48,163 bases of DNA from Desulfobacteraceae bacterium (GTDB lineage: Bacteria > Desulfobacterota > Desulfobacteria > Desulfobacterales > UBA11574): positions 1 to 48,163 of the forward strand of contig JAUVVL010000002.1 of assembly GCA_030604635.1 (NCBI GenBank), given 5' to 3'. Each line of letters starts with the position of its first letter. The stretch's first letter is position 1. The position numbers and the translations under genes were made by a program. The notes under the pieces are model-generated. The model was not told where the DNA came from, made no database searches, and saw only the letters and a list, made by a program, of their open reading frames with translations. Positions 5,907-44,799 of the stretch are shown here, piece after piece.

Positions 5907-7670
5907 TTACATCTTCTCCAACAATTTCCTAAGCGCTTCCGTCTTATTTTTGATGAGCCCGCTTTCACCTTGGGCCATGGCCTCTTTTACTTTAAATATG
6001 ACTGACTCAATCTGTCGAAGATAAGAAGTCGACAATTTTCCCTTTTTTTCCTCAACAACCAGTTCAGCCGCACGGATCATGCTGTCGGCCTGGATGTTAA
6101 TCTCCAATGACTCGCGTTTTTTCATATCTTCTTCGGCATGCGCTTCAGCCTCACTGACCGCCTGCTTTACCTGTTCATCCGACAACAGGTATGAAGCATC
6201 GATCTTGATGCCGGTCTGTTTTTCGGTGTGCAGCTCCTGAGCAGAGACTTTCACGATTCCGTTCACATCGATCTTAAAGGAGACCTCCACATGGGCCTTT
6301 CCCCTGGGCAGGGTTGGAATATCGGTCAACTGGAATTGCCCCAGGCTGAAATTGTCTACAGCCATCTCCCGCTCACCCTGGAGGACATGAATATCCATCA
6401 CGGCTTGATTATCCTCGGCGTTGGTAAATATCTGCCCGGCAGATGTGGGTATGGCGGCGTTTCTGTGGATGATCTTTGTAAAAAGACCGCCCTGTGTTTC
6501 AACACCTAATGAAAGCGGGGTTACGTCAACCAGTACAACATCGCTAATCTCTCCGGTCAAAACCCCGGCCTGGACAGCCGCCCCGATTCCCACTACCTCA
6601 TCAGGGTTGATCTTGACATAAGGTTTTTTATTAAAGATTTTTTCCACCAGTTCTCTTACAGACGGCATTCGGGTGGAGCCTCCCACCAACACGATCCGAT
6701 CGATCTCATCCGGAGACAGCCGGGCATCAGATAAGGCCAGCCGTGTAGGGCCGACGAGCTTTTCCCTCAAATCCGAAGTTATCGCTTCAAATGTTTCCCG
6801 ATCAATTGAGACCTCCGGATCTTTTAATTTGCCGTTTTGGGTCCTGCCCGCTCGTGCCCTGTCCGCCTCGCTCCACCCGGCAGGAGGGCAGGCGGGTTTG
6901 ATAAAAGGAAGGGAAATTTTGACACCGGGTTGGCAGGAAAGCTCCCTTTTGGCCTTTTCACAGGCCTCTTTCAAACGCTGTAGTGCGTATTTGTCTGATC
7001 TTATATCAACCCCATGTTCATTTAAAAATTTTTCAGCAAAGTAATCAAGCAGCCTTTGGTCCCAGTCATCGCCGCCAAGCCGGGTGTTGCCGCTGACAGC
7101 TTTGACATGAAAAAAACCGTCTCCCAGCTCCAGGATGGACACGTCAAACGTCCCTCCGCCCAGGTCCCAGACCAGGATCGTTTGAATATCTTCACGATCC
7201 AGCCCATAAGCCAGGGAGGCCGCCGTAGGCTCGTTGATTATCCTTATCACATCAAGGCCGGCTATCCTGCCGGCATCTTTGGTGGCCTGGCGCTGACCGT
7301 CATTGAAATAGGCAGGAACCGTGATAACGGCCTTTTTCACCTCTTCTCCAAGATAGTTCTCAGCGTCTGATTTTATCTTGCGCAAAATAAAGGAGGATAT
7401 CTCCTGGGGGGAATAGCTCCTGCCATTAAGAGAGACTCTGTAGTCGCTGCCAATATGCCTCTTAATGGACATGACCGTCTTTTCGGTATTGGCTGCGGCC
7501 TGGCTTTTGGCTACCGAGCCGACCAGTTTATGCCCCTGGGCTGTTTCCGCAAAAACAGAGGGCGTCAGATTTTCCCCTTCAGCGTTTTTAATCACTTTGG
7601 CCTGCCCATCTTCTATAATGGCTGCCACCGAGTAAGTAGTGCCAAGATCTATGCCGATTGCTTTAGTCAT
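5907..7670 (-). CDS. Atypical Hsp70/DnaK-family chaperone (short lid, extra loop insert)
   Basis: GIDLGTTYSVAA, DLGGGTFDVSIL, VLVGGSTRMP and a substrate-binding beta domain (VDVTPLSLGVET). 587 aa, so the C-terminal lid/tail is shorter than in DnaK. About 18 extra residues follow LPFI. Confidence 0.9.
   Translation of the reverse strand: MTKAIGIDLGTTYSVAAIIEDGQAKVIKNAEGENLTPSVFAETAQGHKLVGSVAKSQAAANTEKTVMSIKRHIGSDYRVSLNGRSYSPQEISSFILRKIKSDAENYLGEEVKKAVITVPAYFNDGQRQATKDAGRIAGLDVIRIINEPTAASLAYGLDREDIQTILVWDLGGGTFDVSILELGDGFFHVKAVSGNTRLGGDDWDQRLLDYFAEKFLNEHGVDIRSDKYALQRLKEACEKAKRELSCQPGVKISLPFIKPACPPAGWSEADRARAGRTQNGKLKDPEVSIDRETFEAITSDLREKLVGPTRLALSDARLSPDEIDRIVLVGGSTRMPSVRELVEKIFNKKPYVKINPDEVVGIGAAVQAGVLTGEISDVVLVDVTPLSLGVETQGGLFTKIIHRNAAIPTSAGQIFTNAEDNQAVMDIHVLQGEREMAVDNFSLGQFQLTDIPTLPRGKAHVEVSFKIDVNGIVKVSAQELHTEKQTGIKIDASYLLSDEQVKQAVSEAEAHAEEDMKKRESLEINIQADSMIRAAELVVEEKKGKLSTSYLRQIESVIFKVKEAMAQGESGLIKNKTEALRKLLEKM
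6834..6899. repeat. GC-rich REP-like segment embedded in-frame in the Hsp70 gene (encodes KPACPPAGWSEADRARAGRTQ)
   Basis: The sense strand cccgcctgccctcctgccgggtggagcgaggcggacagggcacgagcgggcagg closely matches the intergenic element at 43351-43400 and 45080-45130. Confidence 0.7.
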
Positions 7671-31248: not shown

Positions 31249-31322
31249 AAATTACCTCCTCTCCGGATAGTCCAGAATTTTCCTTTTCCGCTTTGAGCTT
31301 TGATCTTTCAGCTAATTTATGT

Positions 31323-31505: not shown

Positions 31506-31510
31506 GGCAA

Positions 31511-31966
31511 TCACTCCTCCCTTTTTTCTTCTTCTACCAGTTTGTCCAGTTCTTTTTGCAGCTCCACAGATTTTTCTTTATACTCTTCCTCTGTTATCTC
31601 CCCAATTTCCCGGCGCATTTGCAGTTCCAGAAGAGCATCCTTGAGCCTGGCTTCCTGATCCATCTCCTCATCGGCAATAGCACCCATCCTTCCGGCCAGT
31701 TTCGCTACCCCGGTCAGCGGGCTCAGAGGAACGGTGACCGGAGCTTTCAGGATCGTACCCAGCAGTCCTTTTTCCACCGGACGGAGGGTTTTCCTGCGCT
31801 TCATGCTTTTGCCCCAACCCCAGGAAGGCATCAATCCCCAGAACCGTGGCAGGGTTATCCGGGGAATTCCACTAACCAGGCCAATAACACTGCCAACCAG
31901 CGGAAATCTGCCCTTTTGAAAGTGGACCTTATCCATTTTCTTTGGTTTATTTCCCTTCTTTGCCAC
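31511..31966 (-). CDS. GvpG-like protein with ~75-aa basic/hydrophobic N-terminal extension
   Basis: C-terminal half LKAPVTVPLSPLTGVAKLAGRMGAIADEEMDQEARLKDALLELQMRREIGEITEEEYKEKSVELQKELD parallels GvpG (31969..32208). Confidence 0.6.
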   Translation of the reverse strand: MAKKGNKPKKMDKVHFQKGRFPLVGSVIGLVSGIPRITLPRFWGLMPSWGWGKSMKRRKTLRPVEKGLLGTILKAPVTVPLSPLTGVAKLAGRMGAIADEEMDQEARLKDALLELQMRREIGEITEEEYKEKSVELQKELDKLVEEEKREE

Positions 31967-31968
31967 GA

Positions 31969-32208
31969 TTAATCCTCCTCCTTATACTTCCTGATTTCCT
32001 CTAACTTTTCCATCAGCCTGGTCTCTTGTTTCTCAAACTCTTCGTCGGCAATCTCTCCCAACTCATAACGCATCTGAAGCTCTAACAAGTCTTCGTATAT
32101 CCTGGAATCATCTGTTTTCTCTTGCTCGGCGGATTCGGCCAGCTTTCTGGAAACCCATACCGGGAACTTGATGGGAGCAAGAACTATGTCGTCTACGATA
32201 AGCGCCAT
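31969..32208 (-). CDS. gvpG: Gas vesicle protein GvpG
   Basis: MALIVDDIVLAPIKFPVWVSRKLAESAEQE..LLELQMRYELGEIADEEFEKQETRLMEKLEEI is the canonical GvpG pattern. Confidence 0.85.
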   Translation of the reverse strand: MALIVDDIVLAPIKFPVWVSRKLAESAEQEKTDDSRIYEDLLELQMRYELGEIADEEFEKQETRLMEKLEEIRKYKEED

Positions 32209-32333
32209 ATGTTGATTCCCTCGACGTTGTGTATAATTATGGGTTACTCCCCACTACTCGAATGAGCAGCAGAGGACAGGTCCGGGGAAATAATGCCCCC
32301 GGACCCGGGGTTAGTGTTGCTGGAAAAGGTTAA

Positions 32334-32672
32334 CTATAGTTCATTTCCCAGCTTGTTTTCCCACTCAGCGTGGATCTTGAGATGCTTTTGACGATAGCTC
32401 TCAGTTACAGCCTGAAGATCTTTGACCTTCTTCAGATCTTCCTTTGCCCTGGCCGCGCTCTTGGCCTTGATCTCGTTCATCCCGGCCGCAAACTTCTTGG
32501 ACATCTCCGTCTGTTTGTCTGTCCGCTCCTTTTCATAGGCCTGATATTTCGTCAGTTTTTCCAGGCGGTCATTGGAATACTTCCTGCTTATATCCTGATA
32601 GTGTTTTACCTTCTTCAGATCTTCCTTTGCCCTGCGGGCAGACTCAGCCCTTTCTTTATCCATATACCTCAT
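32334..32672 (-). CDS. Small coiled-coil protein with an internal duplication
   Basis: SARRAKEDLKKVKHYQDISRKYS.. and SAARAKEDLKKVKDLQAVTESYR.. repeats. No known domain. Confidence 0.45.
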   Translation of the reverse strand: MRYMDKERAESARRAKEDLKKVKHYQDISRKYSNDRLEKLTKYQAYEKERTDKQTEMSKKFAAGMNEIKAKSAARAKEDLKKVKDLQAVTESYRQKHLKIHAEWENKLGNEL

Positions 32673-32759
32673 GCTTTTTCACCTCCTTTCCTCCAGGGGA
32701 AAAGCGTTTCTTTTCACCTGCTTATTTGAGCAGAGGACCATGCGTTGCCGGATGCTCCT

Positions 32760-33002
32760 CTACGCTCCCCTCAACACGGCAATAGGGCCGCGGCTTAAGG
32801 TACGATTGACTGCTCGTTCTCCCTTGGGGCTAAGCATATATTCCCCAGGGCCGATTTTGGAAAGGTACCCGTCCTCAAGCAGATTTCCGCAAACCTCGCC
32901 GGCATACTCTGCCGACATTGACATCTTGCGGGCAATCCTTTCGGTCCTGCATGAACCAAGTTCCCTTATGATCTTTAATACTTGTTCTTCGCTCCCTTTC
33001 AT
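32760..33002 (-). CDS. Small wHTH protein (S-A-E-Y-A-x-x-V-C)
   Basis: EEQVLKIIRELGSCRTERIARKMSMSAEYAGEVCGNLLEDGYLSKIGPGEYMLSPKGERA. Confidence 0.6.
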   Translation of the reverse strand: MKGSEEQVLKIIRELGSCRTERIARKMSMSAEYAGEVCGNLLEDGYLSKIGPGEYMLSPKGERAVNRTLSRGPIAVLRGA

Positions 33003-33017
33003 TTTTAGTCCCCTTTT

Positions 33018-34082
33018 CTAATGTATAACCTTCCTTGACCCAAGCACCTGCAGGTTGGTGTCAAACTTGAGTTCATAGATCACAATTGGGGGCCTGCCTG
33101 CCCGCTCAATATTGCGCGTGCGCATCTCTTCCCAGGGCTCCACCATTGCCCTCCACCCACCGTTCTCCTGGTTGAGGTTGACAACCCTGCCGGCCTCGCT
33201 GATGGCCTTTTCGAGCACTTTAATGCCTACCTGAGGGGCTTTTTCACGGATAACATTCATCAAAGGCTTGAGAAAGTGCCTAACCTGTTCTGCCCGCTTC
33301 TTCTTTTCATCTTTTATTTTTTCGTAAGAGCTGATCTTCAATTCCTGATCGACACGAAGCTCATAGAGACTCGGTTCTGTGCGGTGCTCCTTACGCCGCC
33401 GTTTTTTTTCCTCCCAGGGCTCGATCACGGCCATGCATCCGTCCCCCTCCCATTTCAGGTCCACCACTTCACCCAGAGCATCGAATGCCTCCTCAAAAAA
33501 CCCGGCAGCCATATCAGGGGTTACATTGTGCCTGGCCTCGTACAATTTTTTGCTGAAAATGCGCAGGCAAGCCTGCAATTGGGCCTTTTGCTCCTCCATT
33601 CTTCGCTTCTCCTCTGCCTCTTGCCTCTTTCTGGCCTCTCGCGTCTCCTTCCATGTAGCTGCTTCTTTCTCCAGAGCAACCACCCGGGGATCGGGACGAG
33701 TTATTCCCCTGGCCCTGCGCCATTCCATGGCCATCAGCTTCTTTCTGATTGCCACAACGGTGGCCGTGTTTATAGAAATTGGTTTGGCTTCTTTTTTATC
33801 CTTTTTTTTCTGAGGCATCCATGAATCCAGCATTGAATGCGATGATCTCTTCTTTGTAAATTCCTCGGAGGATACCTCGTGAAAAGCTATAGCTGAGGTG
33901 GTATCTCCTACAGGAGTTGCAGCCGCCGGTTTCGATTGAAGCCTTTGATATTCAAAATCCCTCTTTACAGCCTCGGATTCTCTTTCGATGGCAGATTTAT
34001 CCGGATACTTTTTCCCGAACATTCGTGCTTTTTCCTTAGCAATTTCGTCTATGGCTGTTTTTCTGAGACCTGCACTCTTCAT
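33018..34082 (-). CDS. Protein with two tandem GvpO-like domains
   Basis: Start at ATG 34082, overlapping the upstream TGA (ATGA). The two segments FEEAFDALGEVVDLKWEGDGCMAVIEPWEE..SLYELRVDQELKI and LEKAISEAGRVVNLNQENGGWRAMVEPWEE..VIYELKFDTNLQV mirror the GvpO core (..DSDGWLVSIEVIEK..LATYETKLDPDGNM). Confidence 0.6.
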   Translation of the reverse strand: MKSAGLRKTAIDEIAKEKARMFGKKYPDKSAIERESEAVKRDFEYQRLQSKPAAATPVGDTTSAIAFHEVSSEEFTKKRSSHSMLDSWMPQKKKDKKEAKPISINTATVVAIRKKLMAMEWRRARGITRPDPRVVALEKEAATWKETREARKRQEAEEKRRMEEQKAQLQACLRIFSKKLYEARHNVTPDMAAGFFEEAFDALGEVVDLKWEGDGCMAVIEPWEEKKRRRKEHRTEPSLYELRVDQELKISSYEKIKDEKKKRAEQVRHFLKPLMNVIREKAPQVGIKVLEKAISEAGRVVNLNQENGGWRAMVEPWEEMRTRNIERAGRPPIVIYELKFDTNLQVLGSRKVIH

Positions 34083-34579
34083 ACTCCCCCTCCTTTTACT
34101 GTCACCACTCCTTTTCCCCTGCACTCGACGCAGGGGAGCTTGCTGTGAGAATCTACCGCCCGCCCTTTGCATCTGCGGCACTGCTCCAGGGGTTCTCTGA
34201 CCGGCACCACACCCTTTCCTCGACAGACCACGCAGGTGATGTTGGTGCGGGGGCGTTCCTCGCCCCGGCCCTTGCAAAAAACGCAAATCATGGCAGGGGG
34301 GGTAACCGAAACCAGACCTTTGCCCCGGCACACAGGGCACGTACTTCCCCTGGGCTTTTCGCCGGAGCCCTGGCAGAACGCACACGGATAAGTTTCTTTA
34401 CGGAGTATCCCCCTGATCTGCTGACCCATTAGGCCCGGATCGTACTGCTCACCAATCTCTTTTACGTCAACCGGCTCCCAGAGCAAACCGCTGTCATGAA
34501 ACCGCGCTTCGCCGTCCCTCTGGTTTTCCGCCTTTTTCAGGTTATGCGAAGGTGTTACATATTCAAATTCCAAAGTCAT
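34079..34579 (-). CDS. Stand-alone DnaJ-type zinc-finger protein, 6 repeats (paralog of the N-terminal half of 28315..29256)
   Basis: CAFCQGSG, CPVCRGKG, CVFCKGRG, CVVCRGKG, CRRCKGRA (degenerate), CVECRGKG. Shared N-terminal motif GLLWEPV / GLIWSPV. ATG 34579 has a GGGAGGA RBS. Confidence 0.8.
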   Translation of the reverse strand: MTLEFEYVTPSHNLKKAENQRDGEARFHDSGLLWEPVDVKEIGEQYDPGLMGQQIRGILRKETYPCAFCQGSGEKPRGSTCPVCRGKGLVSVTPPAMICVFCKGRGEERPRTNITCVVCRGKGVVPVREPLEQCRRCKGRAVDSHSKLPCVECRGKGVVTVKGGGV

Positions 34580-34794
34580 TCCTCCCGTTACCACAATAAT
34601 CCACGGACTTTTTTGACAGGCCCGCCCTGGCGCGACGTAAGAAACTTTGTTTAGGTTTAGCTATTAATCATTAGATTCCGGATATCGATAGCCGCTGCTC
34701 TTTTAACCAGGTCTGGGCCAGGGATTAACTGGATTTATTACCCGGCAGGCAGGTCTTATATCCTGATCATCTTGTACATCCTGTCATTTAAGTT

Positions 34795-35061
34795 TTAGTC
34801 TTCTACGTCTTCCGTATCGATTCGCTTGCGCATCCTGACCCGCTTGAATTCCAGCATATTTCCGTCGGGATCCAACTTGGTTTCGTATGTGGCCAGAACA
34901 TCCATACCGTCAGGAAGGGAATGCTTTTCAATGACCTCTATACTCACCAGCCACCCGTCACTATCTCTGGCCGCCCCCAAGGTTGATCCAACCTCTAAAG
35001 CGGTAAGCAAACTTAATTCTGACCGTGCCTTTTCTATTACTTCTCTTATACCTAAAGCCAT
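34795..35061 (-). CDS. gvpO: Gas vesicle protein GvpO
   Basis: IEKARSELSLLTALEVGSTLGAARDSDGWLVSIEVIEKHSLPDGMDVLATYETKLDPDGNMLEFKRVRMRKR. Start at ATG 35061. Confidence 0.85.
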   Translation of the reverse strand: MALGIREVIEKARSELSLLTALEVGSTLGAARDSDGWLVSIEVIEKHSLPDGMDVLATYETKLDPDGNMLEFKRVRMRKRIDTEDVED

Positions 35062-35100
35062 TTTGTTTTGCCTCCTTTTGTGAAATAATATTGAATAACT

Positions 35101-35175
35101 CACGAAAATCTGTGTAATCTGCGCCTGCCCCGTGGGTCCGGAAGATCGTACTGGGGTAATCTGTGGATTAAAATT
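35101..35175. repeat. 75-nt dispersed repeat R2, copy 1
   Basis: cacgaaaatctgtgtaatctgcgcctgccccgtgggtccggaagatcgtactggggtaatctgtggattaaaa has about 4 mismatches to 41498..41570. Confidence 0.85.
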
Positions 35176-35215
35176 AATAGAATTCCTTCAATCTTCATTC
35201 TTCAATCTTCAATCT

Positions 35216-35884
35216 TCAATTCATCAGGTATTCACCCAGCTCATCGAACTTTTCTTCATCACCTCCGGAGATGAGTATTTTAAAATAGGCCTTCATCTTT
35301 TCCCGTTTTTTTACCTCTTCAACCTCAATATCTTCGGCAAGTAGAGAAAGCACATCATGATAAGCCCCTATGAAAAGAACCCCCATTTCTTCCGCTTTAA
35401 GAGTCTGATTTATAGTGTCGGCAATAAATCTGTCCCTTTTGTCCATAAGTTTATCTCTGTGAAATCTGTATCCTATGTAAGCCGTAGTCCTTTCCCAGAG
35501 CGATTTGCTCTGGGCAAGCTTGAGGATTCGATCGTATTCTTCCTTAAGAAGCGTTATATCTTCTGTCTTTCTTATCTCAGCACCTCTTCTGATCAGGTCA
35601 AGGACAATCCGGTAATTTCTGCTACCTTTTTGTGCTCCTTCCTCGATAATCTTTTGACCAAGCTCGCCATCTGCCATTAATCCATCCTGATAGATTTTCA
35701 AATTATCGGCATTTAAATTCTTGAAATATTCCTCAATATTATCCCAAAATGTGGATACAGTCTGTTTATGTCTTTCCCACCGTTCTCTCCCGCATATCTG
35801 TGTACTTCTTTTGTCGATAGCAGGCGCGATGCCCCCTAAATCAGATTCTACATGAATAACCGGCACATAGAGTAATTTTCTCAT
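35216..35884 (-). CDS. Hypothetical protein (222 aa)
   Basis: Clean ORF between heptamer arrays. No motif recognised by eye. Confidence 0.5.
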   Translation of the reverse strand: MRKLLYVPVIHVESDLGGIAPAIDKRSTQICGRERWERHKQTVSTFWDNIEEYFKNLNADNLKIYQDGLMADGELGQKIIEEGAQKGSRNYRIVLDLIRRGAEIRKTEDITLLKEEYDRILKLAQSKSLWERTTAYIGYRFHRDKLMDKRDRFIADTINQTLKAEEMGVLFIGAYHDVLSLLAEDIEVEEVKKREKMKAYFKILISGGDEEKFDELGEYLMN

Positions 35885-35885
35885 T

Positions 35886-35968
35886 ATTCTTCAATATGCA
35901 ATCTTCAATTGTTTCGGTCTTCAATCTTCAATCTTCACTCTTCAATTGTCTTGGTCTTCACTCTTCAA
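35886..35968. repeat. STRR-like CTTCAAT heptamer block
   Basis: ttcttcaatatgcaatcttcaattgtttcggtcttcaatcttcaatcttcactcttcaattgtcttggtcttcactcttcaatcttcaat. Confidence 0.85.
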
Positions 35969-35971
35969 TCT

Positions 35972-36994
35972 TCAATTAACCACTGATCTCCTGACATCTA
36001 TCCACCCCCTGACATCCGCTTCCTTAAATGAACACCGGTCCTCCCGGCAGTAATCGCTGAGCATATGATAGGCCTTGTTGATCTTCTCAAACCTCTGATG
36101 AACTTCCGGATCACCCGGATACTTATCGGGATGAAACTTTTTGCTCAATTCCTTGTACGCTTCCCTCATTTCAAAAGTCTCGGCTTCTTCCCCTAACCCC
36201 AGCATTTTTCTGGCCTCGTTGATCTCATCAAATTCCGCCTTTTTAATCTCCAGCGTGTTGAAACTGTATGGGGGAAGGGGGCCTATAATTCTAAAATTGA
36301 TTGCGTTTTTGAATCGTTTGTCCAGTTGGTCCACTTTCAACTCAAAGGTTTTTTGATTATCTTTCTTTATTAAAAAAGCGCTGTTCATTATCATAGAATC
36401 ATCCATAACTTCATGCGTCCGGTAAGTTTCAGCTTCTTTTCTCAATACATTCAATATGTTTGAAACGCATTTATCCCTCTTTTTATCCAACGTGTCCTTG
36501 ACCATTTTCCCCAGGTTTATTTTAATTTCAAATAGTTGATCAGCCGGTTTAGATGCCGCTTCTTCCTTAAGTTTTTTAATCTCTTCTTCTCTTCCTATTT
36601 CCTTTAAAACCGTCTCCATGTCGCTCCATAGTGCCGCTACATCGAGCTCTATTTTGTTCTCCATTTCCTTGAGGTTTGTGTTGATTCGTCGATAGCCCTT
36701 TTTTAGGATTATCTTAAGCTCTTCCTGTCCTTGAACCATTGTTCCGAATTTCACCGGTATAATGTGATGACTTTTCATCACCTTTTCGATGACAGCTTGA
36801 TAAACGGCCAAATTGCGGAGGAGAGTTTCTTTGGGTAGAGAATCAAATTGTATGAGCGGCAAATCGCTAACCACAGCAGCGATATCCTGATAGGAAAAGG
36901 TGTAAACTTCTCCCTGATCTAAACCTATGGCGCCAAAATTTTCATGTTCACTTTTATTGACAAAACCATAAATGTATCTTCCTTCTATGGCCAT
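35972..36994 (-). CDS. gvpF: GvpL/GvpF-family protein fused to a C-terminal DnaJ J-domain
   Basis: N-terminal GRYIYGFV..GLDQGEVYTFSYQDIAAVVS and IIGPLPPYSFNTLEI (GvpF/L). C-terminal LGLGEEAETFEMREAYKELSKKFHPDKYPGDPEVHQRFEKINKAYHMLSD has the HPD tripeptide. Single uninterrupted ORF. Confidence 0.9.
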   Translation of the reverse strand: MAIEGRYIYGFVNKSEHENFGAIGLDQGEVYTFSYQDIAAVVSDLPLIQFDSLPKETLLRNLAVYQAVIEKVMKSHHIIPVKFGTMVQGQEELKIILKKGYRRINTNLKEMENKIELDVAALWSDMETVLKEIGREEEIKKLKEEAASKPADQLFEIKINLGKMVKDTLDKKRDKCVSNILNVLRKEAETYRTHEVMDDSMIMNSAFLIKKDNQKTFELKVDQLDKRFKNAINFRIIGPLPPYSFNTLEIKKAEFDEINEARKMLGLGEEAETFEMREAYKELSKKFHPDKYPGDPEVHQRFEKINKAYHMLSDYCREDRCSFKEADVRGWIDVRRSVVN

Positions 36995-37006
36995 TTCTTA
37001 TCCTCC

Positions 37007-37137
37007 GAAGCTGGTTGCTCGTTACTCGTTGCTTGTTACTGGTTGCTACCCACTAACCACTCTCCGACCTCTGACTACTGACCTCTGATCTCTGACCTCC
37101 GACTTCTGATCTCTGACATCCGACCTCCGATCACTGG
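37007..37137. repeat. STRR-like heptamer block (GTTGCTC/GTTACTC then CTGACCT/CCGACTT/CTGATCT units)
   Basis: ctggttgctcgttactcgttgcttgttactggttgct .. cgacctctgactactgacctctgatctctgacctccgacttctgatctctgacatccgacctccgatcactggtca. Confidence 0.85.
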
Positions 37138-39264
37138 TCACCGTACTTCCTTTAATGCTTCCTGAAAGTGCTTTCCTGAAACCAAAAGCTTGGACTCATC
37201 CCGGCCTCCATTTTGAATAAATTCTCTTATGGCTGTCATTGAGGCCTTCCTGCAAATTAATTCTATATCCGCTCCAACAAGCCTCTCCGTTGCACCGGCC
37301 AGTGCCTTAAGGTCCACGTTCTTGGCCAAAGGTTTCCCTCTGGTATGGACTTTAAATATCTCTAATCTTGTCTCCTCATCCGGGATGGGAAGCTCCAGCA
37401 GGAAATCGAATCTGCCGGCCCTGAGCAAGGCCGAATCGACAATATCCAGTCTGTTAGTAGCCGCCAGAACCACAATCCCCTTGAGTTCCTCGATTCCGTC
37501 CAGCTCGGTCAGAAATTGGCTGATGACGCGATCGACCACATGGGATGCAGCTTCGGAACCGCGCCTGGGAACCACACTGTCTATTTCATCGAAAAATATG
37601 ATACATGGAGAGGCCTGCTTGGCTTTCTTGAAAACCTCACGAACGCCTTTTTCGCTTTCTCCAACCCACTTGGAGAGGATCTCCGGGCCTTTGATTGAAA
37701 TAAAATTCACCTCTGATTCAGAGGCAACTGCCTTGGCAAGTAATGTCTTGCCTGTTCCGGGTGGACCATATAGCAATATACCTTTGGAAGGGTTTGTTTT
37801 GGCATGTTCAAACAACTTATCGTATTTCAGGGGCCATTCGATGGTTTCCTTTAGCACCCTTTTTATTTCGGAAAGTCCGCCGACATCGCTCCACTTTACA
37901 TCCGGAATTTCTGTGAACACTTCCCTGATGGCTGAAGGCTCAACTTCCTTAAGGGCCTCCATGAAATCATCCATAGTCACCTGAAGTTTCATCAAAGTCT
38001 CGTAAGGGATCTCTTCCATCTGGAAGTCAATGCTGGGGAAGAGTTCTCTCAGGGTAACCATCGCCGCTTCCCGGGAAAGGGCCTCCAGATCAGCACCAAC
38101 AAACCCATGAGTAATCTCGGATATACGCACCAAATCCACGTCCTCGGCCAGAGGCATTCCCCGTGTGTGGACATCCAGTATTTCAAGGCGGCCGTTTTTG
38201 TCGGGTATGCTGATTTCTATCTCTCGATCGAAACGTCCCGGCCTTCTCAAGGCTGGATCAAGGACATTGGGGATGTTGGTGGCGCCGATAACGATCACCT
38301 GACCTCTGGAGGAAAGGCCGTCCATCAATGCCAGAAGCTGGGCTACCACCCGCTTTTCCAGTTGTTTCTCGCCTCCCATCTCCTCCCGCTTGGGAGCAAC
38401 GGAGTCAATCTCGTCTAAAAATATAATGCTTGGAGCATGCACAGAGGCCTCATCAAATATCCTTCTGAGATGGGCCTCGCTTTCGCCATAGTACTTGTGC
38501 ATGATCTCCGGGCCGCTAATATGTCCAAAGTGTGCATCGGTCTCATTGGCCACAGCGCGGGCGATGAGGGTCTTTCCGCATCCGGGGGGACCGTGTAAAA
38601 GAACTCCTTTGGGAGGCTCGATGCCGAGCCTTTCAAAGACCTGGGGATATTTTAACGGCAGTTCGATCATCTCTCGAATCCGCCGGATTTCCTTGCCCAA
38701 CCCGCCGATATCTTCATAGGATATCCTGGCCATGGCCACACCAACGCCCTTCTTCTCCTGAATCCTCATAACAGTCTTGGGGTTGATTATCACCACGCCT
38801 GCGGGCTTGGTGGAAACAACTTTAAAATCCTGGGTTCGAGTTCCGATAAGTCTTGCTCTTACCATGTCACCCACTAATAGCGGCAAACCCTCCAGGAGGC
38901 TTCCGATGTAGCGGGCATCGTAGGAACGCATCAAGGTTAAAGGGGCAACAACAATTTTTTGGGCCGGCATGAAATCAGACTTTGTGACGGAAATTTTTTC
39001 GTCAAGGCCGACACGGGCATTTTCGCGGGTGATCCCATCCAGGCGAATCAAACTCTTGCCCCGGTCTTCCATATAGGCAGGCAAAACCTTGGCCACGGTT
39101 TCCCTTTTCCCTTTGATGGTCACCACATCTCCCACTTCAACCCCTATTTTTTTAAAATCGGCGGGGTCAAAACGGACAATGCCGCGACCTACATCTTTGG
39201 AACCAGCCTCTGCCACTTTTAGGGTAATGGTTTTGTTTTCTATGTTCTTTTTTTGGGCTTTCAT
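37138..39264 (-). CDS. Cdc48/VCP/VAT-like double-ring AAA+ ATPase (N-domain, D1, D2)
   Basis: N-domain [34 protein letters not shown]1 [11 protein letters not shown] / [10 protein letters not shown]2 [11 protein letters not shown] / IIFFDEIDS. Second-region-of-homology arginines are present. Confidence 0.92.
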
Positions 39265-39413
39265 TTAGCTGCTCGTTGCTGGTTGCTGGTCAATGAAGAT
39301 TGAATATTCGACAAATCAATCGCCTTTCTTTAAATCCGCAATGGGCGAACACAAGGTTCGCCCCTACAATTTCCTATACGTTCTAATCCCTAAATCCTTC
39401 AATTCCTAAATTC

Positions 39414-39971
39414 CTAAATTGTCTTTATCTTAATCTCCAGTATCCCGTTTTTATATGACCAGGTCATATCCTCGGTCTTGACCGGGCGGGAGAGGAGGAC
39501 CTCTTTCTGATATTTTCTGCTTGCTCCCTCGGCAATAATATTCAGGATGTCCCCTTTAATCTCAAGGCTGATGTCCTTTTTCTCGATACCCGGCATCTCT
39601 GCAATAATATTAATCTCCCCGGGTTCTTCAAACACGTCCACGATAGGCTCGCGCATCTCCTCTACCACAGGACCCTTGGGAGTTTTTTTGATATTCCCAA
39701 AGGGCTGAATGGATGGCTTGCCGTCGGCCATGGTGCGTACCCTGACCCCGTAAACGCCTTTCAGATCCTTGAGCCCCTTGATCTTTTCGAGGCCGCTGAA
39801 ACGGATCTCGCCTGTTTTGGAAAGCTCTTCGCCCTTTTCAGCCAACTTAGTAGCTGTATCGATCAGATTACCCAGCCCCTTGAAGAGCCCGCCAAGACCA
39901 AAATCAATTCCAATGCCCTCGTCTTTTTTTTCTTCTTCAGGTTTTTCCTTCTTCTTTTTTTCTTCCGTCAT
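39414..39971 (-). CDS. Hsp20/alpha-crystallin protein (GvpH-like), copy 2
   Basis: IVDVFEEPGEINIIAEMPGIEKKDISLEIKGDILNIIAEG..NGILEIKIK. N-terminal LGGLFKGLGNLIDTATKLAEKGE. Confidence 0.8.
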   Translation of the reverse strand: MTEEKKKKEKPEEEKKDEGIGIDFGLGGLFKGLGNLIDTATKLAEKGEELSKTGEIRFSGLEKIKGLKDLKGVYGVRVRTMADGKPSIQPFGNIKKTPKGPVVEEMREPIVDVFEEPGEINIIAEMPGIEKKDISLEIKGDILNIIAEGASRKYQKEVLLSRPVKTEDMTWSYKNGILEIKIKTI

Positions 39972-40005
39972 TGCTTACTCCTATTTTTAGTCATTGGTCA
40001 TTGGG

Positions 40006-40097
40006 CTATAGGTTTCTTGCCTATTAATAAGCCAGGTCTTTGTCTCATATAGTGAACCATGGGCATAATAACAAAAACTGTTTTGTGCAAAGCTCAT
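40006..40097 (-). pseudogene. Decayed remnant of a four-helix-bundle (IVS protein) gene
   Basis: Retains ..FCYYAHGSLYETKTWL.. and the 3' end ctataggtttcttgcctat, matching 9335-9356 and 9455-9515. Large internal deletions and a frame change. Confidence 0.55.
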
Positions 40098-40145
40098 TCA
40101 CCAATGGCTAATGACCAGTGTGTACTGTTCACTGACCACTGTTCA

Positions 40146-40316
40146 TTATCTGGCACTTTGTCGTTTGCTAATAGTAATAAATTGGGCTCGATTCGTACCA
40201 GCCAGTTTAATTTCAACCAACTGACCTTCTTTTAAATCTGCTTTCCTTTGAATATTTTTGGGAATAGGAATTTTACCTTCTTTATCTACCCTTGCAAAAG
40301 CACGCATTAAAGCCAT
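40146..40316 (-). CDS. AbrB/SpoVT/MazE-type small DNA-binding protein (56 aa, below the ORF-track cutoff)
   Basis: MALMRAFARVDKEGKIPIPKNIQRKADLKEGQLVEIKLAGTNRAQFITISKRQSAR. The KEGKIPIPKNIR..L.EGQ.VEI pattern is the swapped-hairpin signature. G-rich RBS 8 nt upstream. Confidence 0.65.
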   Translation of the reverse strand: MALMRAFARVDKEGKIPIPKNIQRKADLKEGQLVEIKLAGTNRAQFITISKRQSAR

Positions 40317-40343
40317 TTGTATACCCCCCTTTTGAGATTGACG

Positions 40344-40392
40344 ATTCAGCCGTCGTAGCTAATTCAGCCGTCGTAGCTAATTCAGCAGCTAC
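40344..40392. repeat. 18-bp direct repeat (2 full units plus a partial third) just upstream of the AbrB-like ORF
   Basis: attcagccgtcgtagcta | attcagccgtcgtagcta | attcagcagctac. Confidence 0.85.
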
Positions 40393-40412
40393 TTTGGCGA
40401 AGTCGGCTTGGC

Positions 40413-40506
40413 GATTGATGATTGAAGGAATTCTGCCAATTTATTAAAAAAACGGAGCGTAGCGATTTCCACAAATATTCAATATTCAATCGACAATATT
40501 CAATTT
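40413..40506. mobile_element. MITE/REP-like element, family R1 copy c (inverted orientation)
   Basis: gattgatgattgaaggaattctgccaatttattaaaaaaacggagcgtagcgatttccac aaatattcaatattcaatcgacaatattcaat. Confidence 0.5.
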
Positions 40507-40508
40507 TA

Positions 40509-41426
40509 TTAGCAGTGTTGATCAATCAATTCTCCAATAACCTCTTTGACTTTGTCCTGGTTGGACTTGCTGCCGATGCGGCTGGTCTCTGATGACAAAA
40601 TATCCATACAGGTTTGTTTGAAAATTTCGTCATTCTTGTTGACCAAAGCCCTTCGGACCTTAAGAGTCTTGGCAATCATAACGCTGCCCCTTATGGTGGG
40701 AGCAAATTCGTACACATCGGAATCCCTCAGTCCCCGGACAATTTTAACAATCCTGGAGGCATCACCATTGGCAAGGCCTGATTTGGTTTCGGTGATACGA
40801 ACCTCCGTCTCTTCGTCGAAATGATCGAGATCAAGGGTGATCATTCGATCTCGGAGGGCATCCTGGCTGCGGTGCACGCCGGCATATTCCTCCGGGTTGC
40901 TGGTAAAAAGCGCCGTAAAGTCCGGGTCAACCCGCAGATAGTTCTCATCCCCCTCACGAGCCGCCGGCAGGTCCAGCATTTTTTCCTGGAGCACTGATAA
41001 AAGTACGTTATTGGCCTCGGGCCTGGAACGGGTAAATTCATCGTAAATGAGCGTGAACCCATACTTGCAGGCTACGGTCAGACGATTGTCCACCCACTTT
41101 TTTTGCAGATTCTCCTCGGTCTTAAGTACTGAATGGATGAAGTTATCCACCACCTTGCGCATACGATAACCATGCTCGCCGCCAACCAGGTCGGACGTGG
41201 AGAACTCCTCATCCCCGTGTATCATGACCACCGGCCGGCCGATCTTGCTGGCTACATGCATGGCCAGGGTGGTCTTGCCTGTTCCGGAAATCCCGCGCAA
41301 ATGAAGTGGAAAACCGGCCGCAATATAGGCCAGAGCCCTCTCGGTAATATCCTTTACAAACGGGGTTTCTACGAAGTTGGGCAGGGGACGCGGTTCCAAC
41401 ACAGTTGTCATTTCATCTATCGCCAT
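40509..41426 (-). CDS. gvpN: Gas vesicle AAA+ ATPase GvpN, copy 2
   Basis: FVETPFVKDITERALAYIAAGFPLHLRGISGTGKTTLA, TLIYDEFTRSRPEANNVLLSVLQE. Confidence 0.92.
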   Translation of the reverse strand: MAIDEMTTVLEPRPLPNFVETPFVKDITERALAYIAAGFPLHLRGISGTGKTTLAMHVASKIGRPVVMIHGDEEFSTSDLVGGEHGYRMRKVVDNFIHSVLKTEENLQKKWVDNRLTVACKYGFTLIYDEFTRSRPEANNVLLSVLQEKMLDLPAAREGDENYLRVDPDFTALFTSNPEEYAGVHRSQDALRDRMITLDLDHFDEETEVRITETKSGLANGDASRIVKIVRGLRDSDVYEFAPTIRGSVMIAKTLKVRRALVNKNDEIFKQTCMDILSSETSRIGSKSNQDKVKEVIGELIDQHC

Positions 41427-41497
41427 ATTTTCCTCCTTTAAAAATTAAAATCCGGCAGGCGGCATGAAAAAAAGTGAGCGATAGGCAGTCGAATATA

Positions 41498-41570
41498 CAC
41501 GAAAATCTGTGTAATCTGCGCCTGCCCCGTAGGTCCGGAAGATCGTACTGGGGCAATCTGTGTATTAAAA
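41498..41570. repeat. 75-nt dispersed repeat R2, copy 2, enclosed by a perfect 13-bp inverted repeat (41478-41490 / 41577-41589)
   Basis: gcgataggcagtc .. R2 .. gactgcctatcgc. Confidence 0.85.
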
Positions 41571-41596
41571 CTACCTGACTGCCTATCGCATTCCGC

Positions 41597-41950
41597 CTAC
41601 TTCTTACTCACAACCCCCTTACCCCCGCATTTCGAGCAAGGGAGGTAATCGCCTGATTTGATACCCTTGCCCTCGCAGTCGGGGCAGGTCTCATACGGCT
41701 CTTTTATGTTTACCATGCCTTTTCCGCCGCAGGCAATACAGGTCAGGCGCTGGTCACGGTGAATACCTGTGCCGCCACAGAAAACACACTCGATGGCCGG
41801 TTCCGGGATGGTCACTTCTCCCCGGCCGCCACAGACCTGGCAGGTGGAGAGCTTGGACAAAAGCTCAAACGGGTCGGTCCCCTTTCCCTGACAGAAGGCG
41901 CATGTGGCAGTGACCCTCCCCTCTTCTCCTTGTAATATTTCGATACTCAT
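41597..41950 (-). CDS. Stand-alone DnaJ-type zinc-finger protein, 6 repeats
   Basis: CAFCQGKG, CQVCGGRG, CVFCGGTG, CIACGGKG, CPDCEGKG, CSKCGGKG. Confidence 0.85.
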   Translation of the reverse strand: MSIEILQGEEGRVTATCAFCQGKGTDPFELLSKLSTCQVCGGRGEVTIPEPAIECVFCGGTGIHRDQRLTCIACGGKGMVNIKEPYETCPDCEGKGIKSGDYLPCSKCGGKGVVSKK

Positions 41951-42011
41951 TGTATTTGCCTCCGTTATTTGATTACCGTTATGAGCGAAAAGTGCTGATT
42001 TTAGGGCCTAT

Positions 42012-43079
42012 TCAGGCAATAAAATAGGTTGAATCTTCCTTCCTTACTTCTCCGTCGTCAAGGAGCTGTCTCATAACGGGAATCAGGGATCTCCAGCTTT
42101 CAATACCCAGGATGTCAGCCATCTCGACCATCCTCAGACCATCGGGATGGTCTTCAAGTATCCCTATGACCCCATCAGCCAGGCCCTCCTCCTCAGGCTC
42201 TTCTTCCTCTGCGAGATCCTCTTCCGGTTCCTCAATGACCTCCTCGGCAGATTCCTCTGCCGGTTCCTCGATGACCTCCTCAGCCGGTTCAACCTCCTCG
42301 GCAGCTTTTACCCTGGCCGGTCCTCTGGCCGACTGCATGGTAGCTAAAAGTTCCTTCCAGGCGACGGCCGTTTCTTCGCGTTCTTGTTTAAATTCCTTTA
42401 AGAGGTCATCAATATACTCCCTCCGAGGAGCATGCTCTGTCTTGAATTCTGCAATTAAATCCGCAACTTCCCTGGCTCGCCTAGGTCCCTCTGCCTTGAA
42501 TTCAGAAATCAGATCCGCAACTTCCCTGGCTCGCTCAGGTCCCTCTGCCGCAAATTCAGAAATCAGATCCGCAACCTCCCTGGCTCGCTCAGGTCCCTCT
42601 GCCTTGAATTCAGATATTAAATCGGCAACTTCCTTGGCTCGCTCAGGTCCCTCTGCCGCAAATTCAGAAATCAGGTCGGCAACCTCCCTGGCTCGCTCAG
42701 GTCCCTCTGCCTTGAATTCAGATATTAAATCGGCAACTTCCTTGGCTCGCTCAGGCCCCTCTGCTTTGAATTCAGAAATTAAATCAGCAACCTCCCTGGC
42801 TCGCTCAGGCCCCTCTGCTTTGAATTCAGAAATTAAATCAGCAACCTCCCTGGCTCGATCAGGCCCCTCTGCTTTGAATTCAGAAATTAAATCAGCAACC
42901 TCCTTGGCTCGCTCAGGCCCCTCTGCTTTGAATTCAGAAATTAAATCAGCAACCTCAGCCCTGCGCTCCTCATTTGCTGTTTTGCATTCAGATAACAGAT
43001 CTTGCACAAAATCCTTCCTGTCCCTATAGGCGCTGGCCATTTCATCTGCCAATCCTCTCAAATCGTCTGCATTTGCCAT
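42012..43079 (-). CDS. Acidic protein with ~10 tandem 18-aa repeats (EVADLISEFKAEGPERA[KR]), acidic linker and C-terminal wHTH-like domain
   Basis: Repeats span aa 42-221. The linker is EEVEPAEEVIEEPAEESAEEV... The C-terminus is ILEDHPDGLRMVEMADILGIESWRSLIPVMRQLLDDGEVRKE. It is the second gene downstream of gvpA. Confidence 0.7.
   Translation of the reverse strand: MANADDLRGLADEMASAYRDRKDFVQDLLSECKTANEERRAEVADLISEFKAEGPERAKEVADLISEFKAEGPDRAREVADLISEFKAEGPERAREVADLISEFKAEGPERAKEVADLISEFKAEGPERAREVADLISEFAAEGPERAKEVADLISEFKAEGPERAREVADLISEFAAEGPERAREVADLISEFKAEGPRRAREVADLIAEFKTEHAPRREYIDDLLKEFKQEREETAVAWKELLATMQSARGPARVKAAEEVEPAEEVIEEPAEESAEEVIEEPEEDLAEEEEPEEEGLADGVIGILEDHPDGLRMVEMADILGIESWRSLIPVMRQLLDDGEVRKEDSTYFIA
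42417..42956. repeat. 54-bp coding tandem repeat, ~10 units, near-identical
   Basis: Reiterated cctctgc[ct]ttgaattcaga[at]at[ct]a[ag]atc[ag]gcaac[ct]tcc[ct]tggctcgctcagg[ct]c units. Confidence 0.9.
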
Positions 43080-43246
43080 GTCGTTTCCTCCTTAAAATTA
43101 ATAATCTCTTATTAAAGACATGCCCGGGAATGCACACCTGCCTATAGAGGGGTGATCTTACACCTCTATACCCTCAAGGATGCCCTGAAAGTTTATGATG
43201 GCGAACCTGCTATGAGCACAAGAACTACTCGCACAGATTGGCGTTT

Positions 43247-43538
43247 CGATTGAATATTGTCGATTGAATATTGACGCTTTGTGGAAGTCGCTCCTGCCCG
43301 CCATCGCACTCGCCGTAACCAGATATGCGAAATTCAAGCGCTTGTGCTCAGGCCCGCCCTCCTGCCAAGCGGAGTGAGGCGGACGGGCGAGGCGGGCGGG
43401 TCGCTCTGTTTTTTTAAAAAACTGACAGAATTCCTTCAATCTTCAATTCCTTCAATCTTCAATTCTTCAATCTTCAATTCTTCAATCTTCAATCTTCAAT
43501 TCTTCAATCTTCAATTCTTCAATCTTCAATCTTCAATT
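43247..43538. mobile_element. MITE/REP-like element, family R1 copy d (full length, with GC-rich module and long CTTCAAT arm)
   Basis: cgattgaatattgtcgattgaatattgac | gtggaagtcgct | cctgcccgccatcgca..gcgggcgggtcgctctgtttttttaaaaaactgacagaattcc | (c)ttcaat array 43431-43538. Confidence 0.6.
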
Positions 43539-43540
43539 GT

Positions 43541-44176
43541 CTATCCACTCACCCTTGCCACTGATTGCCACTGGCCCTGGACCCTGGCCCTGACGACGTC
43601 AAAGTCATCCAGCATTCTGGTTAATTCAACATCACGATCGCTCTGCTGAGCCCTTATTGAATTGAGCATGACCTTGAAGTCTTTAACTTTAACCCCCTCT
43701 CCTTTTGATAGAAGTTTTTTAAGCCCGGCCCTGAATTCCTCCAGCTCGATCTGGAAGCATTTGAGTGTCTTGATTACTTTTTTCTCACGCTCTTTTTGTC
43801 GTGTTGAAATATCCTCTTTAATGGCCTCCATATCTTGCAGGGTTGAGCTACTCACGCCTAGAACGATCTTCCTGAGCCGGCTGATCATTTCTTTTTCCTG
43901 TTCCTGGAAAAGCTTAAGGCTGTGTTTGGCCTCTTCCTCGCTCTGCCGGCGGCATTCTACCACATCACTGATCATACGATCAAAGTCCTTTTTTCTCAGG
44001 CTTTCCGCTTTAGCAAGATTGTCCCTCAGCCGGACGATCATGTTCTCGATCTCCGTTTGAAAGCTTTTAAGGAAATGATATGCTTGATCCATCAATGTGT
44101 TTACTGTCTTCACACGCATTTCATAAGAATCTATGATACTGTTGGCCAATGCCTTTAAATCCTCTCCAGCCCCCAT
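43541..44176 (-). CDS. Coiled-coil protein immediately downstream of gvpA, distantly related to the 18-aa-repeat protein
   Basis: N-terminal EDLKALANSIIDSYEMRVKTV parallels DDLRGLADEMASAYRDRKDFV of 42012..43079. Degenerate D-F-x-x-M-I-S motifs recur (KKDFDRMISDV, VKDFKVMLNSI). Confidence 0.55.
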   Translation of the reverse strand: MGAGEDLKALANSIIDSYEMRVKTVNTLMDQAYHFLKSFQTEIENMIVRLRDNLAKAESLRKKDFDRMISDVVECRRQSEEEAKHSLKLFQEQEKEMISRLRKIVLGVSSSTLQDMEAIKEDISTRQKEREKKVIKTLKCFQIELEEFRAGLKKLLSKGEGVKVKDFKVMLNSIRAQQSDRDVELTRMLDDFDVVRARVQGQWQSVARVSG

Positions 44177-44479
44177 CTTTTCACCTCAACATAAAAAAAC
44201 CGCAAACAAATCGGACAATTACTTTATCAATTCCCTTTATAGCATTTTCAAACCGCAACTTTGTTGGTCTCGTAACTGGATTCCCGCTCCCCGATCGGGT
44301 CGAGGACAAGCTTCGCGGGAATGACGATAGCGTGTGTTTTTGACTTGTTACGGGACAATCAACTTTGTGCGAATGCTATTTTTGAAGGGAGTATTGTCAG
44401 ATTTATTTGCGGCTTTTAAAAAAATGCCATCGGAGATTTCAGATATGCTCAAGATAAAGATTTACCTACCCTATTGTCT

Positions 44480-44507
44480 GCTGAGGGGTTTTATAAAACG
44501 CCTCAGC
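44480..44507 (-). other. Stem-loop 45 nt downstream of the gvpA stop (possible partial terminator or mRNA stabiliser)
   Basis: gctgaggggttttataaaacgcctcagc: ~11-bp stem with one mismatch and no U-tract. Confidence 0.35.
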
Positions 44508-44551
44508 AATCCCAAGGATATCTGGCAATCCCCCTTCTTAATTAACGGATA

Positions 44552-44758
44552 CTAAGCGGCCTCGGGTAATAGTCCAACGGCCTCAGCGTATTTCAAGAAA
44601 GTCTCAACGCCAGCTATGACGATCCTGGCCTCAATAGCTAAAAGCTCAATGCCGACCAGGGAAATCCTGACCCATGCATCGACCACAACGCCCTTGTCGA
44701 GAATTCTATCGACAACCTCTACCAAACTTGAAGATGCTATTGCTTTTTCTACTGCCAT
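44552..44758 (-). CDS. gvpA: Major gas vesicle structural protein GvpA
   Basis: [63 protein letters not shown] is near-canonical GvpA. GGGGAGGTG RBS. Confidence 0.97.
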
Positions 44759-44799
44759 GTAAATTCACCTCCCCTCTTTGTGGTTTTACATGGTTATAA

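Follow-up and report, generated by a model that had tools for sequence, protein, structure and literature searches.

A 48,163-nt stretch of a Desulfobacteraceae bacterium genome (GenBank assembly GCA_030604635.1, contig JAUVVL010000002.1, positions 1 to 48,163 of the forward strand; hereafter the window) carries a gas-vesicle (gvp) supercluster of ~44 kb on its minus strand, extending from ~2.9 kb to ~46.6 kb. Within this supercluster, an uninterrupted open reading frame (ORF) of 708 amino acids with an ATG start coincides exactly with positions 37138–39264 (minus strand) and encodes a CDC48/VAT-type double-ring AAA+ ATPase, referred to here as Cdc48, with an N domain (residues ~1–178), a D1 module (~179–455) and a D2 module (~456–708). 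It is preceded directly by a gene for an Hsp20/alpha-crystallin small heat-shock protein of the archaeal Hsp20 type (39414..39971, minus strand) and followed directly by a gene in which GvpF/L is fused to a DnaJ J domain with its HPD motif present (35972..36994, minus strand). The enzyme family is familiar, whereas its conserved placement in an organelle gene cluster looks new within the literature that could be searched.

A complete CDC48/VAT-type ATPase

By every sequence criterion applied, the window protein belongs to the CDC48/VAT family. A Pfam scan placed CDC48_N (PF02359, 96.7 bits) at residues 14–96 and CDC48_2 (PF02933, 42 bits) at residues 117–171, together with two AAA modules (PF00004, 305.8 bits in total) and two AAA_lid_3 domains, while the NCBIfam model TIGR01243 (CDC48 family AAA ATPase), whose curated cutoff is 802.65 bits, matched residues 13–707 at 947.2 bits. 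The closest solved structure was that of Thermoplasma acidophilum VAT (5g4f; 753.6 bits, aligned residues 10 to 708), and eukaryotic p97/Cdc48 structures ranked after it at ~600–690 bits. The Walker A motifs of D1 (GPPGCGKT, residue 225) and D2 (GPPGTGKT, residue 500) are intact, as are the Walker B motifs (IIFLDEID, 280, and IIFFDEID, 555), sensor-1 in both rings (GATN and AATN) and the arginine fingers (RRPGRFDRE and LRAGRFD). An initial sequence-only reading of the window had described a full N domain followed by D1 and D2 with intact Walker motifs, and Pfam, TIGR01243 and motif inspection all bore this out.

Each ring also carries an aromatic pore-loop-1 (KYYGESE, 257, in D1 and KWVGESE, 532, in D2). 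As in VAT and archaeal CDC48, the architecture is N-D1-D2 and alignable end to end; the D2 pore loop is identical to that of VAT and the Tyr-Tyr of D1 is kept (KYYGQSE in VAT), which is the archaeal unfoldase type. The catalytic and pore-loop motifs and the full CDC48 architecture are retained in every gvp-linked homologue. The window Cdc48 is thus apparently a complete and active VAT-type threading ATPase, and a hexameric double ring with ATP-driven threading is predicted from homology. Public annotation of these proteins reads 'CDC48 family AAA ATPase' and nothing more.

Other assignments were considered and rejected. All AAA families beside CDC48 scored under their NCBIfam cutoffs, and the match to the IteA anti-phage ATPase (236.9 bits against a cutoff of 510) involved the D2 module alone. 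A ClpB/Hsp104 disaggregase would be expected neither from the N terminus, which is made up of CDC48_N and CDC48_2 without Clp_N, nor from the remainder of the protein, which has no M-domain insertion; D1 aligns to VAT without large insertions and therefore leaves no room for an M domain.

The C terminus sets the window protein apart from VAT and archaeal CDC48. Archaeal CDC48 needs an HbYX motif (a small or hydrophobic residue, then F or Y, then any residue, at the extreme C terminus) for activation of the 20S proteasome (PMC3493965). No HbYX motif was found in the window Cdc48, which ends ...KEVR where the D2 lid stops and has no tail at all, and among the gvp-linked Cdc48 sequences, with tails of 0–13 residues, none has F or Y at the penultimate position. 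Since both the 20S-coupling tail and HbYX are missing, the window Cdc48 is not the proteasome-docking form.

Linkage to gas-vesicle genes across phyla

Conservation of the gvp linkage was assessed in two sets of loci. The Cdc48-anchored set comprised 47 loci encoding Cdc48 relatives, returned by a scan of one genome per species and then searched with all window proteins, and the GvpN-anchored set comprised 80 metagenome loci whose GvpN is at least 70% identical to the window copy. Nearly all of the related loci are metagenome-assembled genomes (MAGs) or metagenome contigs, and because both sets were picked by similarity to the window, the second via GvpN, they say little about the frequency of the arrangement among all gvp clusters.

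Of the 16 bacterial loci of the Cdc48-anchored set that have informative flanks and ≥55% identity, 15 place Cdc48 within a gvp cluster and on its strand. These 15 loci span Desulfobacterota, Planctomycetota, Alphaproteobacteria and Dethiobacter, with Cdc48 identities to the window protein of 83–89% in Desulfobacteraceae and Syntrophales MAGs, 67% in a Planctomycetota MAG, 59–61% in five Alphaproteobacteria MAGs and 56% in Dethiobacter alkaliphilus. Cdc48 is gvp-linked too in a Bacillota MAG at 49% identity (L034), and an independently annotated 325-kb contig from the Joint Genome Institute (L048) shows the same arrangement with Pfam-labelled neighbours. In the GvpN-anchored set, 23 loci extend 8 kb or more downstream, and 21 of these contain Cdc48. 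One contig labelled 'Patescibacteria' bears a cluster 84–87% identical to those of Desulfobacterota and is therefore probably mis-binned. Linkage to gvp genes in related genomes had been named beforehand as the point on which the sequence-only reading could fall, and it was found in at least four phyla.

Linkage of this kind is a property of one part of the family. A Firmicutes-type clade (L019–L046, 48–54% identity), which includes Moorella/Neomoorella, Syntrophomonadaceae, Thermosediminibacter and others, shares the family and architecture of the window protein and groups with the bacterial sequences, but differs in its neighbourhood and its tails. At ~23 of these loci Cdc48 follows a GntR-like regulator and precedes three 2-oxoacid:ferredoxin oxidoreductase-like genes and, after these, a permease-like gene, names that were given by eye from the sequences (for example, L025 9072–17482). 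No gvp genes were seen near Firmicutes-type Cdc48 in the loci searched with the window proteins, and the C-terminal tails are 7 to 33 residues long, many of them ~30 and ending ...GR. The existence of this other conserved context argues that gvp linkage is clade-specific and not general for bacterial Cdc48.

Two archaeal relatives likewise lie away from gvp genes. On a Methanosarcinales contig (L016), Mch and an ABC transporter come after an Hsp20-Cdc48 pair, and no gvp gene matched within 10 kb of Cdc48 on a Methanothrix contig. In the Methanosarcinales pair (452–3089 of that contig), Hsp20 lies 16 nt upstream of Cdc48, which is 59% identical to that of the window.

Phylogeny, signature residues and co-divergence

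In a neighbour-joining tree, the Gram-negative gvp-linked Cdc48 proteins form a single clade (98% bootstrap) within which those of Desulfobacterota and Planctomycetota cluster at 100%. Bacterial Cdc48 is split from three archaeal sequences (Methanosarcinales, Methanothrix and Thermoplasmata) at 99% bootstrap, and the gvp-linked proteins of Dethiobacter and the Bacillota MAG L034 split off close to the base of the Firmicutes-type clade. The Gram-negative clade has a signature of its own that distinguishes it from VAT and CDC48, a cysteine (residue 229) in the D1 Walker A motif GPPGCGKT, which occurs in every Gram-negative gvp-linked Cdc48 (L001–L015 and L042) and in no other sequence sampled; besides this cysteine, a few N-domain residues are characteristic of the clade. 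A matching cysteine occurs in the D2 Walker A of p97, where it is redox-sensitive.

Divergence of Cdc48 parallels that of its cluster. Across ten clusters, pairwise identities of Cdc48 correlate with those of GvpN (Spearman's rho 0.93) and of Hsp20 (rho 0.93), correlations whose P values carry no weight because the pairs are not independent. In Cdc48, GvpN and Hsp20 alike, Desulfobacterota are nearer to Planctomycetota than to Alphaproteobacteria. This co-divergence fits a Cdc48 gene that travels with the cluster, and the Hsp20-Cdc48 pair of the Methanosarcinales contig suggests an older archaeal-type module that was later captured by bacterial gvp clusters.

An alternative interpretation is that Cdc48 is a housekeeping enzyme hitch-hiking in the gvp region with no gas-vesicle-specific role. 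Bacterial Cdc48 does occur in other contexts, on a Nitrospinota contig (L010) and, in the Firmicutes-type clade, near GntR and oxidoreductase-like genes, and the protein has no obvious gas-vesicle-specific domain. We strongly disfavour this interpretation, however, because same-strand gvp linkage is kept across four phyla, which chance co-location would not be, because the divergence of Cdc48 follows that of GvpN and Hsp20, and because the gvp-linked proteins form a supported clade with its own signature residues.

Flanking genes, spacers and a recurrent gene order

Both flanking genes are of chaperone type. The upstream Hsp20 was matched by PF00011 (22.2 bits, cutoff 20.8) and by the NCBIfam archaeal Hsp20 model (141.1 bits, cutoff 140), and the downstream fusion by the Pfam models GvpL_GvpF (200.8 bits) and DnaJ J domain (55.4 bits). 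The sequence-only reading had placed Cdc48 between a GvpF/L-J fusion and a 'GvpH-like' Hsp20; the two neighbours are as it described them, except that no GvpH-named family matched the Hsp20 at E ≤ 0.01 in Pfam, where the matches were HSP20, CS and ArsA_HSP20 only, so that 'GvpH-like' holds by analogy alone.

Parts of this arrangement recur elsewhere. Of 50 loci that contain Cdc48, 37 have an Hsp20 gene on its strand and no more than 2.5 kb upstream, 20 have a small ArsA-like gene between Hsp20 and Cdc48, and in 28 GvpF/L directly follows Cdc48. HPD-bearing J domains were found in 34 related loci, beside or inside the GvpF/L match where both could be mapped. For additional ATPases and a small heat-shock protein as conserved extras there is a precedent, ArsA and Hsp20 having been described from gvp clusters of several phyla (Castillo and Saier 2010, PMC2963123). 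The window cluster resembles those clusters in having both; it differs in Cdc48, as the available part of that paper names ArsA, Hsp20 and the standard gvp genes but no Cdc48.

The 149-nt spacer between Hsp20 and Cdc48 (39265..39413, minus strand) contains a GC-rich hairpin (ggggcgaac-cttgt-gttcgccc) as well as tandem repeats of short period, of which a period-8 repeat at 39385–39420 was called by TRF and CAGCAAC-like heptads before the ATG were recognized by eye; no obvious Shine-Dalgarno sequence was seen before the Cdc48 ATG. A conserved regulatory element in this spacer was considered and rejected, as an alignment of eight such spacers was unconserved and contained only lineage-specific heptamer repeats. 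The 143-nt spacer between Cdc48 and the GvpF/L-J gene (36995..37137, minus strand) consists mostly of heptanucleotide tandem repeats, after which a GGAGG Shine-Dalgarno sequence precedes the GvpF/L-J gene. No terminator-like site, T-tract terminators included, was called in either spacer. Heptanucleotide tandem repeats (period 7, 4–14 copies) occupy many intergenic spacers of the supercluster (for example, 4895–4973, 9719–9762, 11251–11303, 13006–13046, 35888–35976, 37014–37136 and 43434–43537), and related loci have spacer repeats of a like kind with other sequences. These heptads resemble the short tandemly repeated repetitive (STRR) sequences of cyanobacteria.

The gas-vesicle supercluster

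In transcription order, the minus-strand supercluster opens with a sigma-54 activator gene (45175–46635) and continues with the major shell protein GvpA (44552–44758), which is the presumed ultimate client of Cdc48, and a coiled-coil protein (43541–44176). Between gvpA and gvpN lies a protein (42012–43079) in which an 18-aa unit (AREVADLISEFKAEGPER-like) is repeated 9.7 times and which may be a GvpC analogue. It is followed by a DnaJ-type zinc-finger protein (41597–41950), further examples of which are scattered between genes, by the canonical gas-vesicle AAA+ protein GvpN (40509–41426; TIGR02640, 340.9 bits) and by an AbrB-like protein (40146–40316). Beyond the Hsp20, Cdc48 and GvpF/L-J genes come a gene for a 222-aa protein of an unnamed family (35216..35884), gvpO (34795–35103) and two gvpG-like genes (31511–32208), all on the minus strand. 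Farther downstream are a second gvpN (26119–27045), two more gvpF genes, gvpK, two GvpJ/M-like genes, a second Hsp20, two two-domain ArsA ATPases, two B12-radical-SAM enzymes, a second repeat protein with 8-aa P/K/Y-rich units (PAPLKPYK-like; 15798–16592, minus strand) and an Hsp70 (5907..7670, minus strand; PF00012, 664 bits). This Hsp70, which likewise stands at the cluster end in related loci, probably partners the J domain fused to GvpF/L.

Several modules are thus duplicated, with two copies each of GvpN, the two-domain ArsA, Hsp20 and the B12-radical-SAM enzyme, alongside at least four GvpF/L, at least seven DnaJ-type CxxCxGxG zinc-finger proteins and many small winged helix-turn-helix (wHTH) proteins. 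A sigma-54-type -24/-12 site (TGGCATGATAAGTGCT) lies at 44800–44815 (minus strand), 42 nt upstream of gvpA, and a perfect TGGCAC-N5-TTGCT site at 46828–46843 (minus strand), ~190 nt upstream of the sigma-54 activator gene; both are suggestive by position only, because the total of such matches across the window is no more than expected by chance. A dispersed repeat of ~100 bp occurs in both orientations at 43293–43391, 45020–45119 and 22790–22850, and the repeat-bearing contig of the source metagenome has a depth of ~3300, compared with ~100 for the rest of the window, which points to a high-copy element resembling repetitive extragenic palindromic (REP) sequences or miniature inverted-repeat transposable elements (MITEs).

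This gene content bears on the possibility that Cdc48 is a regulatory unfoldase, acting on a wHTH or AbrB-like regulator or on a GvpC-like repeat protein and so tuning gas-vesicle output or shell stiffness. Candidate substrates are encoded in the cluster, namely the AbrB-like protein, several small wHTH proteins and the 18-aa-unit repeat protein, and engineered ClpXP can strip GvpC from vesicles (PMC9501494). Yet the conserved partners of Cdc48 are of chaperone type (Hsp20, small ArsA and GvpF/L-J) and not regulators, wHTH genes are not consistently adjacent, and neither a degron nor an adaptor is in evidence; we therefore regard this role as rather improbable.

A co-travelling 222-aa protein

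The 222-aa protein travels with Cdc48. In four of five alphaproteobacterial loci (L011–L014) its gene is the one immediately downstream of Cdc48, in Desulfobacterota another gene intervenes, and many clusters with Cdc48 lack it. Its family numbers 1037 representative clusters at E ≤ 1e-3 and is not covered by Pfam; the AlphaFold model of the protein is confident, with a predicted local distance difference test score (pLDDT) of 90.8, and no fold match in the PDB reached E < 0.1 or a template-modelling (TM) score above 0.3. The protein is possibly a distant TraB/Tiki-like hydrolase, to judge from weak but recurrent hidden Markov model matches to TraB/PrgY/GumN and ChaN (Tiki superfamily). Residues H11, D67, E108, E116, R150, D151 and H176 are invariant. 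Among remote members, one also matches GvpL_GvpF and is probably a fusion, and two match the response-regulator receiver domain.

A further alternative is that Cdc48 drives degradation by a proteasome or another protease, in the manner of many archaeal homologues. Archaeal CDC48 offers the precedent, activating 20S through HbYX (PMC3493965), and the 222-aa protein, which is weakly similar to TraB/Tiki and has His, Glu, Asp and Arg residues that do not vary, is a candidate non-canonical hydrolase partner. We nevertheless consider degradation coupling very improbable, because no gvp-linked Cdc48 has HbYX and the tails are essentially nil, because no 20S, ClpP or other peptidase family was found among the window ORFs scanned, and because the 222-aa protein, which resembles no PDB fold significantly, is missing from many clusters with Cdc48.

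Proposed role in gas-vesicle protein quality control

Hexamers of VAT and Cdc48 act as unfoldases and pull proteins out of assemblies. We consider it probable, though well short of certain, that the gvp-linked Cdc48 is a stand-alone, gas-vesicle-dedicated segregase or quality-control unfoldase for GvpA-family proteins. GvpA, GvpJ and GvpM are hydrophobic and reportedly aggregate without chaperones, GvpF is reported to bind monomeric GvpA (PMC9501494), and surplus shell protein is proteotoxic in heterologous hosts (PMC12848028). In the mechanism that we propose, Hsp20 would keep extractable either the very hydrophobic proteins of the GvpA/J/M family or shell material that has misassembled or collapsed; Cdc48 would then engage these clients through its N domain and thread them through the aromatic D1 and D2 pores at the expense of ATP, extracting subunits from off-pathway aggregates or dead-end assemblies; and the freed chains would either be cleared or be returned to an assembly line consisting of GvpF/L as GvpA binder, the fused J domain, the cluster Hsp70 and GvpN. 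The substrate, the hand-over to Hsp70 and the net effect (assembly quality control as opposed to shell recycling) are putative elements of this scheme.

The sequence-only reading had gone further in suggesting that the enzyme might disassemble or remodel gas-vesicle shells or misassembled GvpA aggregates, complementing GvpN. Linkage across phyla and co-divergence favour a segregase dedicated to gas vesicles and acting beside GvpN, whereas disassembly of shells or of GvpA aggregates by Cdc48 is a step that we infer; assembly-side chaperoning or the unfolding of a regulator would match the genomic evidence equally well. In its strongest form, the disassembly proposal holds that Hsp20, the small ArsA where present and Cdc48, joined in some lineages by the 222-aa protein, constitute a dedicated shell-disassembly machine that recovers GvpA from collapsed or unwanted vesicles for recycling or degradation. 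We put this forward tentatively, as possible but doubtful. No enzyme for ATP-driven disassembly or turnover of the gas-vesicle shell is described in the gas-vesicle literature searched, and such a machine, if real, would provide ATP-driven control of buoyancy loss and shell turnover.

Cdc48 might instead be an assembly motor, unfolding or priming new GvpA, GvpJ and GvpM, or stripping them of chaperones such as GvpF/L or Hsp20 so as to feed the growing shell, as a second energy source beside GvpN. Its position is compatible with such a role, among GvpN, GvpF/L, GvpG and GvpO with no terminator called on either side and with GvpF/L directly downstream in more than half of the Cdc48-containing loci (28/50), and the extra ATPases of the cluster (two GvpN, two ArsA and one Hsp70) suggest an elaborate assembly line. 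We judge it unlikely all the same, given that clusters without Cdc48 (L060 and L087) are otherwise complete and that threading unfoldases normally dismantle assemblies and do not build them. GvpN itself resembles Cdc48 in being an AAA+ protein of gvp clusters and a presumed biogenesis motor, and the two co-occur with correlated divergence; unlike Cdc48, GvpN has a single module of the AAA_5/MoxR-dynein type, with neither an N domain nor Cdc48-type aromatic threading pore loops, and it is listed with the genes conserved in all gvp clusters (PMC9501494), whereas Cdc48 is optional.

The arrangement also recalls the disaggregation triad of small heat-shock protein (sHsp), Hsp70 with J-protein, and ClpB/Hsp104, in that a holdase sHsp adjoins a threading double ring and a J domain and an Hsp70 are present. 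It departs from the triad in its AAA+ component, which is of the Cdc48 type and has neither Clp_N nor the Hsp70-docking M domain, and cooperation among the components here would be by analogy with the triad.

Several observations weigh against a gas-vesicle-dedicated quality-control role for Cdc48 or narrow its reach. In the absence of a ClpB-type M domain, coupling of Cdc48 to Hsp70 is speculative. The neighbour-joining tree (692 columns, 200 bootstraps) drew on sequences sampled by similarity to the query. On the Nitrospinota contig L010, Cdc48 (62% identity) has no adjacent gvp gene, its neighbours being RimK-like and an aminotransferase. The only RNA run, from the marine-sediment source sample, gave zero coverage of positions 28000–47000. 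The gvp clusters listed in a 2022 review (PMC9501494) are without Cdc48, and close, otherwise complete gvp clusters without Hsp20-Cdc48 occur at L060 and L087 and also at L063, L074, L079 and L110. In these Cdc48-less clusters GvpN is 71–75% identical to that of the window and GvpF/L-J is kept; the two longest, L060 and L087, also retain a full-length ArsA, and an Hsp70 is visible at the end of L060. Since such clusters exist, Cdc48 cannot be indispensable for making gas vesicles in general, and the pattern of presence and absence marks Hsp20-(small ArsA)-Cdc48 as an optional module on a J-domain/Hsp70-containing type of gvp cluster, for whose function the Cdc48-less clusters are natural comparators.

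Implications for gas-vesicle biology

The conserved association of Cdc48 with gvp clusters looks undescribed within the searchable literature. Full-text searches of that literature turned up no publication that connects gvp clusters with Cdc48, VCP or VAT; matches to 'Cdc48' were haloarchaeal papers, in one of which Cdc48d was a Ni-NTA contaminant, and reviews. GvpN is the sole AAA+ protein named in the 2022 review (PMC9501494) and in a 2025 list of assembly factors (PMC12848028). Relative to VAT and CDC48, the window protein is set apart by being bacterial and encoded inside a gas-vesicle cluster, and the arrangement suggests that an archaeal-type Hsp20-Cdc48 pair was transferred into bacterial organelle clusters.

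The module may also matter for heterologous expression. Most gvp clusters fail or are toxic in Escherichia coli because shell protein outpaces assembly capacity (PMC10344784, PMC12848028). Such failure or toxicity might be eased by a matched sHsp-Cdc48 module, which might also make acoustic reporters erasable. Vesicles do form in E. coli from a Desulfobacterium vacuolatum cluster (FWXY01000008:1268-24724). For the biology of gas vesicles, the module offers a handle on the solubility and insertion of the hydrophobic, amyloid-like GvpA and on the fate of misassembled or collapsed shells, and it would exemplify Cdc48 serving, in bacteria, a defined client system other than the proteasome.

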